This document shows positions 40,708-47,447 of a stretch of DNA of 64,000 nt, one piece after another. Within the stretch, counting starts at the first letter, position 1. Each line of letters begins with the position of its first letter. A program made the translations under genes and the position numbers. The stretch is taken from NCBI GenBank assembly GCA_000182565.2, contig KQ257463.1; one strand, written 5' to 3'. Below the pieces are notes generated by a model, which was given only the letters and a program-made list of their open reading frames with translations, searched no databases and had not been told where the DNA came from. This DNA comes from Spizellomyces punctatus DAOM BR117. Lineage: Eukaryota.

Positions 40708-41309
40708 ATGGTCAAGTTTTTCAGCAACCTCCCCGACTCGGACCATGTTCCCTATACGTTCATCACGGATGAGCCACATGTGCGGGATATCGTTCGTTAT
40801 ATGCGGAAAGACGATTTGATGCTCTGGGGAGGAATTGCCGCTGGATTCCCGGCATTGCACTTTGCTTGGGGTGAGTTGACCTTTGGGGTTGGTTTGAGCT
40901 GTGACTGGGCCGCAGCCGAAGCGAGATGCTGCTGCCCCCACTTGAAATGAGGGGATTGAAATGAAAAGGACAATGTCGGCCGATGCTGTACAAGGACTCG
41001 CTATATTGACCCAATATTTTGTTCTTATAGAACGTGCATACCCTTCCTTCCACCCCAAAGTCATGCCGCGCGTTATGGCCATCCAGATCCCATTCTTTGC
41101 TACCTGTGGATTCTTGTTTGCCGCTCAACGGTCCCTCTGTAAGTCATTTTATTCATCCAGTCAACAGCCTTAGATATCTCACATGAGAATCTCTTTCAGT
41201 CCGATTCTGGGGCTGGCGAGAGAACGATATCGAAGTGGCTCGCTGGAATGCAGAGGCGTCGGCTCGTCCGGCACCCGCAAAGAAGGGATGGCAAGACAAC
41301 GATTGGTGA
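40708..41309 (+). CDS. Complex I subunit NUXM (20.9 kDa / NDUFB1 family), three exons
   Basis: PYTFITDEPHVRDIVRYMRKDDL...GFPALHFAW|ERAYPS...GFLFAAQRSL|FRFWGWRENDIEV. Confidence 0.9.
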
Positions 41310-41606
41310 AAGGTGTACAATACGATGTATGGCTCGGCAACATGTGTGGGTCTGACCTAGAGTGCTATTGATGGTATATATATGAACAAAAGAAATAGGA
41401 TACCTTTTACTTTTTTTCGAGACAAGAATGTTGGAAGAAAGGGGATTTAATCAAGCTGTGTGCCAGTCGACAGGATGAGACCAAAAAATATCATTCTCCC
41501 AAGAAGCTCTGCACAAGCAATAGAAGGATATAGGACTCTAGGCGATATCAATGCCCAGCTATCTAATCTGTTTTAGGAAGGTCTAACCTCCGGAGACCAT
41601 CTCCCA

Positions 41607-44521
41607 TCAGTAATTCTCTTTGGCCTCTTTAGCAAGCACTTCCCCTTCCTTTTTGATGACGCCCAAATGTAATACCCTGTCTCCTGCCATGGCCACCGGA
41701 TTCGAACTACGTCCGATTGTCTGGTGAGAATAAGTAAACTGTCAGCTTTCTGATGATCATCTTTGATCAAGCAACAGACGGAACTCACCACCCCGGAAGA
41801 AGGAGCATAAATCTCTTCCACAATGTTCCCAAAGATATTCTTGATCCTTGCAATCAAATCTCCTTTTCTAACCACAGTATTCACATTTGGATACACCTCA
41901 AGCACTCCTCCTGTTTTCGTGTATATCCAGAAGCCCTTTGAACAGAGGATCGTAGAAGGGGGTGGTCCACCGTGAACGGTGTTCTCTGGGTCCATGGAGA
42001 ACATGTTCAGCCAGGCTAGAATGCGCATAACGCCAAGGTACGACCATTGGACATATTGGTTTTGGAAAAGCTGAGGGTTGCCGATTTCGACAGTGATCGC
42101 TTTGACGCCACGGTTCATGGCGGCTGAGCGGAGTGCACCTATCCGCTGATGTGTTAGTACGAATTCACTAGTTTCTGTTACATGATTCTCCCTTTCCCAT
42201 AGCAGCTCCTCACCATCTTGTCCACTGTTGTGCAAAATGATCTGAGGCTGTTGCAGCTTTGCCATTGCAGCCGCCATCGGGTCATTCATGTCACTTCTGA
42301 CATAGTAGGAATTAACCCGTCCAAAACTCGCCGTATGGAGATCAATCAAAAAGTTGAAGTGATTGACGACCTTGTCCATAATGTTGAACGCATATATTTG
42401 AGAGGATGTGCCTTCCGGTTGTCCAGGGAAGAGACGATTCAGGTCCTTCCCGTCAGAGAATTCTCTTGAATACCGGAGATAGCCGGGAACATTCACACAT
42501 GGGACGGCGACCACGGTTCCTCTGAGTTGTGACACGTCAATGTCTGATATGACACGATGGATACACGGCACGCCATTGAGCTCATTGCCGTGAACTACCG
42601 CGGTTATTCCGACCTTTTCACAGGTTTTAAAAGGACTGAACGTGCTTGAAAACGCAAATTATCACGCTACTTACCACAGGGCTATTCGATGGCACATGCG
42701 ATAAAATCCAGAAACAGTTAGTATATCCGTGTTTTACCAAAGAGATCGATCTTAATCACATACCCATCTTCTTTTCCCCTCGCCACAATGACGGGAATCC
42801 TCAACCATTCCGATAGGCCCTGTTTGGCAATGTTGATCCACGCTGTACTAATGGCTCCAACTGGGAACTCTTCAATAGCCAGCCTATCCCTCACAATAGC
42901 AGGTGGCACATCACTCTCATTCTTAAATCTTGCCGAAAAGACAGGTGGCCGATAATGTCGCGCTGAATCCCAATGTTTCAACGGAATATTCGCATTAATG
43001 GCAGAATCACCTGGGGGTGACGTGGCGAAGGGAGAGCCAACTGTGGAGTTATCATGTAAAAGATTTGTGGAAGAGGTTTGGGAGAAGGGCTGGAAAGGTT
43101 GATCGTCAAACACAATGATAGAGCCGGCTCGGCCGCGTGGACGAGGACTGGTGACATCGACAATCGATGCTCGGCGTTCGGGGCGGAGAAGATTGACTTG
43201 GATGATTAGGACAGTTGCATCCTGGTGGTCTGCACAGTGACGACATTGTTGAGCACCAGTTGAATAATATGCACAAGTGTTCCATCAATGGCACATACCC
43301 GTTTTGCCGTCAGGTCCATGTTCATCCTTTTCAAAAGGCGTCCCATCACTGGCTACTGGTGTCATTGCAAAGTCCGTCGGACTGGACTCATCTTGTCTCT
43401 CGCAAATCAATGTCTGGCCTGTCAACACAATTTGGGGTTCCAATGTTCCTTCGACAGCCACCTTAATTCCGCCGCTGACAACATACACAATCGTAAAATT
43501 TCCCAGGAGCATCTTGCTTGTCGGATTGGCAACTCCCACTCCGTTCGAATCTTTCTTTTCGTGTCCCGTACCATGTGGATGGTGATTGCATTCCCCGTCA
43601 TCACTTAGGCCATGCAAGCAGATCGTCTCTAGATTAGCGGTAACATGCGCCCTATCCCTGTTTGCAATGAATGTCAGATGCCGAATAGGTCCTGACCTAA
43701 TGCGACAGGTTGTCGGCCATTCTCCACTATAGGTATATGGGATGAGGGGACGAAGTGGAACGGGAGTAGCTTGGTCATTGTGGTGCAATGCTACGCGATT
43801 AGTGAGCGAGTTGCGCCGGGTATGAGCCACAGTGGGATGTGCATCTGGGAGAAGAAAGAGAGCAATGTCGTAGCCGGGGAAAACGGAAAAGGAACAAGAG
43901 TCTCGAACTTCAGAGAGGGCCAGGCGCCAGACGAATTCCTCGGTTTCAAAATCCGTGCTTGGGGGGCTGATCGCGATTTGATGGGTTTCTCCGAGACCAT
44001 TTTTCCAGGGCATTCGTATGTAGTCCTTTTCTTCGAGCACCTATGGTTTAGAAAAACAAGCCGCGCAAAGCGCACAAAGAAAGTGAGAAAAGTGATCAAT
44101 AGCGGAGAGTCAATGGGTTGACGACAGCAAAATCGTTTGGTGCACAGAAGCAGCCACGTTCCACTTTTCCATTGCATCCAATGGCAAAATCGTAGGTATG
44201 GGAAACCTGCCACGAGGGGGAACAGCCCCCAGCCCGCCCCCGCGAATAAACCTCCACACAACCCCGCCTCTTCCTCCCACAGTTTACCCCCGCGTGGGAC
44301 CTTGTTCACGTCAAAACCACCCGTAGGCTCCCTCCTTTCCTCCATCCTACTCATACCTGGATTTTGGGCAGTTCTATCGAAGGCTGGCCTGGGTTTCCGG
44401 TCATGGAAGGCGACAAAGTCATTGGGGGCAGAGTGTCAGGTCGCACCGAGGGGCTTGTCTGGACACTTAGGCTTTCGTGCTGGGGTTTCAGACCAGGTGA
44501 TATGACGCCCTTGTTTGGCAT
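41607..44521 (-). CDS. Fusion protein: HutD/Ves-like cupin domain plus AstE/AspA (M14) Zn-deacylase domain
   Basis: N-terminal KIQ|VLEEKDYIRMPWKNGLGETHQIAISP...FVWRLALSEV....FSVFPGYD (HutD). C-terminal GP|VVGITAVVHGNELNG, DLNRLFPG, IDLHTAS, GALRSAA, ITVEIG and a lipoyl-like hairpin. Canonical GT-AG joins keep one frame. Confidence 0.85.
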
Positions 44522-45313: not shown

Positions 45314-46657
45314 TCACTTTAATGTCTCCAGCTCCTTCTTAACATCCTGGAATCCATCTTCCCAAAATCCGTCTTCGTAGGGGGCAGCAAAGATTCTCTG
45401 GGTCGGCGGTGCAAACCAATAGTTCAGAGCCGTATGGAGTCCCGCTTGATCACCGGCAGAGCCAACTTCGTGAAACCAGCCGGCAGGGAGGTAAAGCATT
45501 TCGTTGGATGCGAGGGTGCAAGATGTTTTAGTGGCGTTCTGAAGGGCGGGATAGAGAGATTTGGTGGAAGGTGCGTGGAGCTCAGATATGGGAATGGTAC
45601 TGAAGCTTGGGGGGTCGGTTGGTGGAGATTTGGGCCGTTTTGCGGCGTGAGAGAGTGGAGGTGCAGAACGCTTTTGCGGTACACGTGCGAATGTCGGCCC
45701 ATTATCGTCGTCTTCGTCCTCATCCTCGTCATCTTCTTCTTCTTCTTCCCCATCCTTTATGTCCCCGTTTTCATCGTCTAGTAGCTCAAAATCATCAAAA
45801 TCATCTATAACGTCATCATCCTCCCCGCTCACCACCATCAACCCGTCCATGGCCGCCTCCAACTCTTTCTCCGCCTCTTCAATTCCTTCTCCAGCCTCTT
45901 CAGCTTCCTCCAACCGCCGCTCTGCAACTCCCACCTTCCACTCTGCCACGTCCCTTATGCCCGCCCCATCGTCCCTCCTGTGCATACCATCATAAAGAAT
46001 GTACCCGTTCGCACACACCCGGGCCACATCGCCTTGAAGATACATGTACTCCGCGTCTCGGGGGCTAAATAGAGTAAATCGCTTCTTGCCTCGAAGGAGG
46101 ATGTACAAGTTGTCTTGATAGTCATGGTGGAGGCCGGATGATGTCGGCGATGCCGGGTCCGTGCTCCCCATCCAAAGATTAACCATTTGAGGAACCAGAT
46201 GTCCCATCAGTTCCGGATGAAGGGGAAAATCGTTCACCAGATTTGTCAATGGATGCGGAAGGAATTCCAAAACCTTTTGCATCGCTTCGTCCTTGTCCTC
46301 ATGTGTTGCGTACTGCGTCGTCATGTAGAGATCACGTTCCCCATTTTCGAGCCGTTTTAAGAAATCCGAGAAGCGCATTTCCAATCTATCTAGCCCAGAT
46401 CCAAATCCTCCTGTCGATGGATGTTTGCGTTCCACTTTGACAGTGAGATCCCCTGAGCGTCGCTTGAGGTAATCTGCGGTCCATGTCGATGCTTTCCAGT
46501 TGGTAGCTGCAATCGGTGAAGTGAGGATGCAAGGAGTGCGCGTTGCAATGTATTTTTCAAAGAATTCTTGGGGTGTGGTGGTGCTGGGGTCAATGCGGTC
46601 TGGTGTCCATGAAGGCGAAGGCGGGTGGAAGCCCTTGTATTCGTTTGCAAAAGTCAT
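45314..46657 (-). CDS. JmjC (cupin-like 8) 2-oxoglutarate/Fe(II) oxygenase, intronless
   Basis: VNLWMG, SGLHHDYQDNLYILLRGKKRFTLF (HxD), MLYLPAGWFHEV (distal His), ALNYWF. Confidence 0.92.
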   Translation of the reverse strand: MTFANEYKGFHPPSPSWTPDRIDPSTTTPQEFFEKYIATRTPCILTSPIAATNWKASTWTADYLKRRSGDLTVKVERKHPSTGGFGSGLDRLEMRFSDFLKRLENGERDLYMTTQYATHEDKDEAMQKVLEFLPHPLTNLVNDFPLHPELMGHLVPQMVNLWMGSTDPASPTSSGLHHDYQDNLYILLRGKKRFTLFSPRDAEYMYLQGDVARVCANGYILYDGMHRRDDGAGIRDVAEWKVGVAERRLEEAEEAGEGIEEAEKELEAAMDGLMVVSGEDDDVIDDFDDFELLDDENGDIKDGEEEEEDDEDEDEDDDNGPTFARVPQKRSAPPLSHAAKRPKSPPTDPPSFSTIPISELHAPSTKSLYPALQNATKTSCTLASNEMLYLPAGWFHEVGSAGDQAGLHTALNYWFAPPTQRIFAAPYEDGFWEDGFQDVKKELETLK

Positions 46658-47447
46658 TCCTCAAAAATCAAACGCTACTCGTTGGGGAGGAAATCGACGA
46701 CGTTCCAAGATCTTGTAATCACATGACCAAGCATCTGAAAGTTCAACTTGTATCGTTTGAACGATGAACAAAAAGTATACGTTTGGGTTGAATAAAACAA
46801 GGCCATTCATGCAGGCAGACAGCACACATGCACATGGAGAGATAGGTATATGGTGCTTTTGGGCTTTTTTCCTTTTGAATGGAATTGGAGCGGTAGATGC
46901 AGAGGCAGCAAAAGGGAAATCGGGCAAACGCAAGCAAACAAAGAACATGGAGAAGGGAACTTGATGCATTCTGACTTTTTGCATCTGGCAATTCTTTCCC
47001 GTCATCGCAGCAGCCATCTTGCAATAGTTTGTTCAAGATTCTTGTTTATATTTCCATCAGCGATGATGGGCGTATCAGATCAGCTAAGCACACACGGCCT
47101 ACAAACGCATTTGCAGATCTGCTTTGCATTTCCTGACGGGCTTTTCCTTTTTGTAATTGGGAACGTTTGGACAATAAAAGGATTGGGGGTGTAGTGTGGT
47201 TACTGGTAAGTTGCCGTCTGGAGGCGTTCGATTTGCAGGAATTGGACCGATTGAGGATTGGTGGAGAGGGGATGCTGGGTTGGAACTGATCGCGGCTGGA
47301 GTGCAGAACAGTGTTTAACATGCGTTTTTCAGCAGTTCCAAAAGGCACCCGCCTATTCTCTTGGCCTTTCCATGCCAAAGCCCCTTGACCGTCCGGGAGC
47401 AACTCTGGAATTCGCTCTTCCACCACCCTGCAGCATAACGACGACGG

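Follow-up and report, generated by a model that had tools for sequence, protein, structure and literature searches.

The stretch of DNA analysed here, the window, comprises 64,000 nucleotides of contig KQ257463.1 of Spizellomyces punctatus DAOM BR117 (assembly GCA_000182565.2), and one of its genes raises the question of why a HutD domain, which in bacteria is a standalone protein, should be joined to a deacylase of the AstE/AspA superfamily, and whether the two parts form one protein at all. The evidence supports a single spliced eukaryotic gene that fuses a HutD bicupin to a zinc deacylase of that superfamily. As to what the product does, we give an even chance to the reading that it would be a two-module cytosolic enzyme, a zinc amidohydrolase for a small amino acid derivative, N-acyl or peptidyl, with an exchangeable ligand-binding domain at the N-terminus that controls or feeds it.

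The proposal of the initial annotation that both domains lie in one frame assembled through GT-AG introns holds. Seven exons and six GT-AG introns between 44521 and 41607 on the minus strand give a continuous frame of 747 codons from an ATG at 44521 to a TGA at 41609-41607, so that the span 41607..44521 marked beforehand is exactly the coding span of the fusion gene. The spliced model is identical in all 747 residues to P0001 (NCBI, Spizellomyces punctatus DAOM BR117), and the N-terminus MPNK... encoded by its first exon is shared with the Gaertneriomyces orthologue P0002. Already at the level of unspliced stop-to-stop open reading frames (ORFs) on the minus strand, the one at 43285-44040 matches Pfam HutD (3.4e-22, 79.9 bits against a cut-off of 25) and the one at 41573-42658 matches AstE_AspA_cat (4.9e-27, 95.2 bits against 25), while the ORF between them (42718-43284) has no Pfam match. 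Without the fourth exon, of 7 nucleotides, both the frame and the conserved GPVVGITA that precedes the zinc-binding HGNE motif would be lost, and the exon is also present in the annotated protein; exons this short are easily missed by gene callers.

It is very improbable, and already close to refuted, that the combination is an annotation artefact in which two adjacent genes were merged, or that it reflects bacterial contamination or a recent transfer. Such an artefact could be suspected from the 7-nucleotide exon and from the RNA evidence, which consists of one 3'-biased run (X9) of which about 6 in 100 was used and in which no read crosses a splice joint. Against it, exon 3 codes for parts of both folds, namely the last HutD strand (residues 307-316) and deacylase strands that AlphaFold2 (AF2) places at 428-453. 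Furthermore, P0001 has no methionine between residues 281 and 539, and a separate deacylase would therefore lack a start codon before its zinc site. In run X9, coverage of the minus strand reaches 80.5-fold at the 3' end of the gene against 0 to 0.44-fold in all bins of 42002-44107, and the zone between the HutD and deacylase parts, covered 0- to 0.1-fold, has no 3'-end peak of its own. We infer the continuity of the transcript across the two domains from these other lines. The composition of the window is that of a eukaryotic chromosome, with a G+C content of 0.44-0.52 throughout and of 0.49 around the fusion gene, like its flanks, and the six introns are of spliceosomal type. The neighbours recognised by Pfam are ordinary eukaryotic genes (Sec5, WD40, JAB/MPN, Cupin_8/JmjC-like, DUF3337, bZIP and a chromate transporter), and neither contamination nor a recent transfer is therefore at issue.

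The same architecture recurs in many genera, which also speaks against an artefact. A search for HutD together with AstE_AspA in related proteins, as the initial annotation had advised, returned 33 long sequences related to the HutD exon, of which 30 contain both Pfam domains, a recurrence far beyond chance; source names are attached to 31 of the 33, and all of them are chytrid species. The four orders checked, Spizellomycetales (to which S. punctatus belongs), Lobulomycetales, Cladochytriales and Synchytriales, all belong to the Chytridiomycetes. Among 28 chytrid orthologues the mean pairwise identity is 0.81 in the deacylase (minimum 0.71), 0.47 in HutD and 0.49 in the linker between them, and by this measure the deacylase module is unusually constrained. 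Some members of the chytrid clade have no detectable HutD, namely P0038 (a complete ORF of 393 amino acids according to its source label), P0037, P0040 and the Rozella protein P0048. In one relative, P0024 (Nowakowskiella sp., 1329 amino acids), the fusion protein runs on into a phosphatase-type domain (PF22669), an extension that may be due to a merged gene model.

The deacylase half bears out the description of an intact zinc-dependent enzyme of the AstE/AspA type. On the full protein, AstE_AspA_cat (PF24827) matches with 1.3e-29 and 103.5 bits against a cut-off of 25, over residues 458-634 and profile positions 2-189 of 192. P0001 aligns with the structure 3CDX at 1.7e-18 and with 3NA6 and the DoeB structures 6TWL/6TWM at about 2e-12, and these alignments reach to residue ~733. 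All the deacylase motifs named in the initial annotation are in place: HGNE (H468, E471), DLNR (N519-R520), DLHT (H553) and TVEIG (E611) align with the same motifs of 3CDX, 3NA6 and 6TWL, and the six residues are invariant or nearly so in the 28 chytrid sequences as well as in 72 mixed relatives. From work on carboxypeptidase and aspartoacylase we take H468, E471 and H553 to be the zinc ligands, N519-R520 to be the carboxylate clamp and E611 to be the general base.

Which small molecule such an enzyme cleaves is less readily told from its family. Substrates in the AstE/AspA family include N-succinyl-glutamate, N-acetyl-aspartate and N-acetyl-2,4-diaminobutyrate, and the models that define these individual enzymes were all failed widely. 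The equivalog model of AstE (TIGR03242) gave 19 bits against a cut-off of 305.65, that of aspartoacylase (NF002601) 22.8 bits against 180, and that of DoeB/EutE (TIGR02994), the best NCBIfam match (residues 446-726), 58.5 bits against 402.7. AstE and aspartoacylase thus share the catalytic family PF24827 with the chytrid protein without being its equivalogs, and the database name "succinylglutamate desuccinylase/aspartoacylase" is a family label, not a function. The best solved relatives are the DoeB/EutE N-acetyl-L-2,4-diaminobutyrate deacetylase (6TWL, 6TWM) and the uncharacterised 3CDX, 3NA6 and 2QJ8, which have the same two-part fold, zinc ligands and catalytic glutamate, but the E-values are only 1.7e-18 to 4e-11 and the window holds no ectoine context. 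The module is accordingly best described as a predicted intact zinc amidohydrolase of a distinct, strongly conserved group that appears closest to the DoeB/3CDX branch. According to an excerpt of one paper, the beta-Asp-Arg dipeptidases CphZ and AotO belong to the same superfamily; they cleave beta-Asp-Arg, and their substrates are small peptides that come from ATP-dependent ligases (PMC9974463). The structure 3FMC, a candidate CphZ, gave a weak and partial match to P0001 (4.5e-4 over 78 residues).

A further clue comes from the bacterial relatives of the deacylase part, for which more than 3000 shorter sequences were found. The bacterial ones of ~325 amino acids are about 50% identical to it over the whole deacylase (E-values of ~1e-100) and have the same catalytic motifs, and a Rozella protein of 324 amino acids is 56% identical. 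Their surroundings were analysed at 80 bacterial loci from Saprospiraceae and other Bacteroidota, Myxococcota, Planctomycetota and others. In 41 of these loci a GshB-like (glutathione-synthetase-like) ATP-grasp ligase is present, and in 58 a highly conserved protein of ~480 amino acids lies beside the deacylase (for instance at L009:3505-4962 and, in Portibacter marinus, at L072:3548-4987), whereas the locus of Enhygromyxa salina (L051) has the deacylase only. The latter has no Pfam match at 1e-4, no NCBIfam family and no sequence match in the PDB better than an E-value of 0.5, and weak RimK matches were seen in 3 of 15 members. Its AF2 model is confident (predicted local distance difference test score, pLDDT, of 81; predicted template modelling score, pTM, of 0.88), and in Foldseek the best matches are 3N6X, a putative glutathionylspermidine synthase (8.5e-10), and 3K1T, a putative gamma-glutamylcysteine synthetase (2.4e-9), followed by eukaryotic glutathione synthetases and YgiC/YjfC, at template modelling scores that are modest (0.37-0.50). 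From this model we predict that the protein acts as an ATP-grasp amide ligase. It also resembles an Atlas cluster (539 amino acids, score 0.99) that is mostly eukaryotic, with Mucoromycota as the commonest phylum. At two of the 80 loci, ligase and deacylase lie in one frame as a single ORF (L024:4459-6960, 833 amino acids; L026:4690-6942, 750 amino acids); these would be bacterial deacylases fused to the ligase rather than to HutD, although an assembly error is possible given that they come from metagenome-assembled genomes (MAGs).

Unlike the chytrid fusion, the standalone bacterial relatives thus lack HutD and cluster with one or two ATP-grasp ligases, which shows that the true relatives of the enzyme form an unstudied bacterial ligase-deacylase cluster, including an ATP-grasp family without a Pfam or NCBIfam model. 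The HutD profile found no match among the 2220 ORFs of the 80 loci, with P0001 as positive control at 1.1e-30, and the N-terminal 415 residues of the chytrid protein matched nothing in these ORFs better than an E-value of 0.18. Nor was a HutD match found in any of seven genomes with such deacylase loci, which are partly MAGs and may be incomplete.

This pattern bears directly on the reading favoured by the initial annotation, a Rosetta-stone link to histidine utilisation in which the deacylase hydrolyses N-formyl-L-glutamate or another hut intermediate and the fused HutD binds that intermediate. AstE-type enzymes do act on N-acyl-glutamate, and in E. coli K-12 (NC_000913.3, 1824362-1826923) the arrangement astCADBE-spy-ves puts the HutD-family gene ves on the strand of astE, two genes downstream of it. 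An excerpt of a study on Pseudomonas describes hutD as co-transcribed with hutC and as implicated in keeping hut intermediates such as formylglutamate from accumulating (PMC8034625, citing Gerth et al. 2017). Nevertheless, the failed AstE equivalog, the ATP-grasp partners and the missing HutD around the deacylase relatives all count against it, and the converse search gave the same picture. In one bacterial class a HutD gene was found in 21 of 301 genomes (the unpublished G095 included), and among 116 ORFs flanking 20 of these genes (G095 left out) there was neither an AstE_AspA domain nor a match to the deacylase profile; the neighbours were heterogeneous, with an arginase-family gene three genes away at one of the 20 loci. 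This sample is Bacteroidia-like, to judge by its type IX secretion neighbours, and Gammaproteobacteria, known for hut operons with hutD, were left out of it. No hut genes were found among the window neighbours scanned. In addition, the nearest standalone relatives of the HutD part, bacterial HutD/Ves proteins from Microvirga and Caulobacter, are only 30-35% identical over about half of the domain (1e-9 to 1e-12). Taken together, we regard the histidine link as quite unlikely.

The N-terminal half nonetheless is a genuine member of the HutD family. A profile match had been set beforehand as a test of the initial annotation, and Pfam HutD (PF05962) matches the full protein with 74.4 bits against a gathering threshold of 25, over profile positions 2-113 of 181. 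The remainder of the fold is supplied by an AF2 model built from the 28 chytrid orthologues, which predicts a confident bicupin for residues 53-318, the last strand of which (307-316) lies past intron 2. Superposed on the HutD structures, the model gives a Z-score of 22.6 with 1YLL (194 of 195 residues, root mean square deviation 2.0, over a span from 52/53 to 318) and of 21.3 with 5FCC (184 of 185 residues), so that the chytrid fusion is predicted to contain the complete bicupin. The quoted motifs PWKNGLGET, FVWRL and FSVFPGYD are present in P0001, and in the forms PWKNGxGxT and FS.FPG.D the first and last are invariant across the 28 chytrids, although the arginine that ends the longer bacterial form (G)PFS.FPG.DR is replaced. 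The motifs were defined here by aligning 10 bacterial with 10 chytrid sequences and do not follow a published description. The same family and fold comprise HutD of Pseudomonas fluorescens SBW25 (5FCC, 5V00), PA5104 of P. aeruginosa (1YLL) and Ves of E. coli (Z 21-22.6, root mean square deviation 2.0 over 184-194 residues), which also share the two motifs. In contrast to these standalone proteins of ~190 amino acids, the chytrid domain is covalently fused to an enzyme, is only 24-27% identical to them and carries three inserts relative to the bacterial sample, while some residues conserved in bacteria are gone. It has invariant residues of its own, C104, H142, D144 and E193, as well as a conserved insert ETICPHGLSDDG.C.

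Between the two modules lies the serine- and proline-rich linker that the initial annotation had pointed out, 93 amino acids long (residues 320-412; 14% serine, 13% proline) and modelled as disordered. Two motifs within it are invariant in the 28 chytrids, R336-x-G-S339-I-I-V-[YF]-D-D and W389..Y395-x-P-P-x-F-S-x-R. The first lies in residues 321-347 (~43175-43095 on the minus strand), where S. punctatus has a basic/serine pattern RxRxxS (R334, R336, S339) followed by IIV[YF]DDQP that looks like a kinase or docking site. The second belongs to a stretch W..ARHYRPPVFSAR (residues 389-412, ~42971-42900, minus strand) that is also found in the HutD-less relatives P0037, P0038 and P0040.

A different accessory domain occupies the place of HutD in other relatives. 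An exhaustive search with the whole protein yielded 6803 relatives at an E-value of 0.001 or below, and Pfam was run on 43 of the top 150. Six of these carry HutD and the deacylase, 3 are pieces with HutD only, 22 have the deacylase alone and 12 have an N-terminal SPX domain (PF03105) followed by the deacylase (P0225, P0227, P0228, P0230, P0231, P0232, P0234, P0241, P0242, P0244, P0247 and P0302), the Pfam cut-off for SPX being passed by 11 of the 12. SPX domains are sensors of inositol pyrophosphates and of phosphate status. The layout of these proteins is that of the chytrid fusion, with an N-terminal accessory domain, a low-complexity linker and a C-terminal deacylase, and they are 33-38% identical to it as whole proteins and 45-52% in the deacylase match. 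They differ in that they start with MKF.KQL...Y..YK.LK, as is typical of SPX, and end with ...DDGH where the chytrid clade ends with ...KENY. Several rows of the ...DDGH group that were counted as deacylase alone (P0233, P0250) also start SPX-like, unscored by Pfam. In P0302, which forms the longest branch of the tree, HGNE is changed to YGDE and DLHT to EIQS, and this paralogue may have lost its activity.

The two groups separate when the deacylase domain is placed in a quick maximum-likelihood tree (86 rows, 331 columns). The chytrid/...ENY clade (15 rows with HutD, 7 without) has a support of 100 in the Shimodaira-Hasegawa-like approximate likelihood ratio test (SH-aLRT), and the SPX/...DGH clade, which includes the short row P0257, guessed to be bacterial, has a support of 95. 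The best tree places these clades side by side, but the join has a support of only 55. This topology is compatible with a single eukaryotic origin that would have been followed by exchange of the N-terminal domain. Because the eukaryotic and bacterial clades form a polytomy, however, the tree speaks neither for nor against an old bacterial transfer.

Two further explanations of the HutD module were weighed. One is that the protein is a bifunctional enzyme in which the HutD bicupin is itself catalytic and carries out a step adjacent to deacylation in one pathway. Isomerases, decarboxylases and dioxygenases are common among cupins, and the structures closest to the model after those of HutD do include cupin enzymes such as AerE (Z 15.0), BacB and pirins, while the invariant cysteine, histidine, aspartate and glutamate together with the conserved insert could form a metal or active site. 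Yet no HutD or Ves protein is known to catalyse a reaction, sequence change in the domain is much more rapid than in the deacylase, and related proteins have the non-catalytic sensor SPX in its place, all of which makes catalysis by the HutD module unlikely. The other explanation gives HutD a purely structural part, in oligomerisation, localisation or protein-protein docking, with no small-molecule role, and takes the deacylase to be constitutively active. The loss of residues conserved in bacterial HutD and the chytrid-clade members that do without a detectable HutD could be understood in this way, but the two motifs that stay invariant in 28 chytrids agree better with a pocket that has been retained than with a simple scaffold, and a purely structural role seems improbable to us.

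We are thus led back to the two-module enzyme. Its C-terminal module (residues ~413-747) would cleave a small amino acid derivative, N-acyl or peptidyl, whose alpha-carboxylate is free, since the carboxylate clamp is conserved and since known members of the family cleave such compounds. The substrate is probably related to what ATP-grasp amide ligases produce, as these are the conserved partners of the bacterial relatives. More tentatively, the HutD module (residues ~53-318), attached by the disordered linker, may bind a small molecule, either as a regulator or as a substrate catcher, and may thereby gate or feed the enzyme. Its role would then be like that of SPX, a true sensor domain found at this position in related proteins, and HutD of Pseudomonas is implicated in handling pathway intermediates. 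Of the options offered by the initial annotation, a ligand-regulated deacylase is therefore the one that gains some support, indirectly and by analogy, from the SPX sensor at the same N-terminal position, which also hints at a link of the enzyme with nutrient sensing.

Several observations weigh against this reading, and it must be taken with caution. The presence of SPX at the same position is an analogy and no demonstration of sensing by HutD, and the SPX-deacylase proteins are presumably eukaryotic, an assumption that follows from the eukaryotic nature of SPX domains in general. The chytrid HutD has replaced the arginine of G.DR and the aspartate of RDLNVM that are found in the bacterial sample; because several such residues are changed, its pocket may bind something else, or nothing. 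The full-length AF2 model (pTM 0.42) has a deacylase half with a pLDDT mostly of 30-70 and no usable interdomain confidence, the poor quality of that half being attributable to the near identity of the 28 chytrid sequences there. No ATP-grasp partner genes were found in the 64-kb window, and the 3'-biased run X9 showed no splice joints. Finally, the function of HutD is still called unknown in the excerpt of the Pseudomonas study (PMC8034625).

A broader version of the proposal extends it to an unrecognised family of deacylases with an exchangeable N-terminal metabolite sensor (HutD in chytrids, SPX in other lineages), which would regulate the turnover of an N-acyl amino acid or small peptide; in bacteria this compound would be the product of two ATP-grasp ligases, one of them from the undescribed family of ~480 amino acids. 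We consider this version possible, though rather doubtful. If it were true, HutD proteins in general would be ligand-sensing modules, and the fusion would provide the first direct biochemical handle on the HutD ligand, a matter open since hutD was found in Pseudomonas.

As an observation the fusion is not new, for public protein databases already annotate it with its two Pfam domains; each of the families is known and their combination is unstudied. A literature search found no paper that functionally describes a HutD-AstE/AspA fusion (supplements of chytrid transcriptome studies were outside this search), none on the COG3608 predicted deacylase with ATP-grasp and none on an SPX domain together with an AstE/AspA term. 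The value of the fusion lies in the fact that HutD/Ves proteins are widespread and have solved structures but no known biochemical function, and that their class-wide fusion to a constrained enzyme makes this function testable. It also points to two unstudied subjects, the bacterial ligase-deacylase cluster with its unannotated ATP-grasp family and the SPX-deacylase architecture. Genetic work on the gene should be feasible because S. punctatus, a harmless saprotroph, can be transformed, as described in an excerpt of a further paper (PMC7213984). The features of the gene are collected in Table 1.

Table 1. Exons, introns, catalytic motifs and transcript end of the HutD-deacylase gene, in window coordinates (residue numbers refer to the 747-residue product).
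Feature	Position	Strand	Remarks
Exon 1	44357..44521	-	Residues 1-55; start codon 44521-44519; low-complexity N-terminus; first HutD strand from residue ~53
Intron 1	44041..44356	-	316 nucleotides, GT...AG
Exon 2	43299..44040	-	Residues 56-303, last codon split; most of the HutD bicupin including the chytrid-specific inserts
Intron 2	43230..43298	-	69 nucleotides, GT...AG; retention leads to an in-frame TGA at 43287-43285
Exon 3	42764..43229	-	Residues 303-458; last HutD beta-strand (307-316), linker, first deacylase strands; no in-frame ATG
Intron 3	42682..42763	-	82 nucleotides, GT...AG
Exon 4	42675..42681	-	Micro-exon of 7 nucleotides, CCCTGTG; finishes Gly458, then Pro459 and Val460
Intron 4	42614..42674	-	61 nucleotides, GT...AG
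Exon 5	42214..42613	-	Residues 461-594; catalytic core
HGNE (exon 5)	H468 at 42592-42590, E471 at 42583-42581	-	
DLNR and DLHT (exon 5)	H553 at 42337-42335	-	DLNR at residues 517-520
Intron 5	42139..42213	-	75 nucleotides, GT...AG
Exon 6	41789..42138	-	Residues 594-710; catalytic Glu611 of TVEIG at 42088-42086; start of C-terminal beta domain
Intron 6	41721..41788	-	68 nucleotides, GT...AG
Exon 7	41607..41720	-	Residues 711-747 and TGA at 41609-41607; ends ...KEAKENY, a C-terminus common to the chytrid clade
Transcript 3' end	41534..41650	-	Sole strong minus-strand RNA peak of the gene, 80.5-fold (run X9)

Two observations concern the immediate surroundings of the gene. The upstream neighbour at 45314-46660 (minus strand) encodes a JmjC-like protein of the Cupin_8 family (4.2e-45) that contains an acidic insert and has no relation to the HutD cupin. 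On the other side, plus-strand reads cover 41300-41416 at 135-fold and have loose ends with A-runs at 41413, which mark the poly(A) end of a convergent neighbour some 190 nucleotides from the stop codon of the fusion gene.

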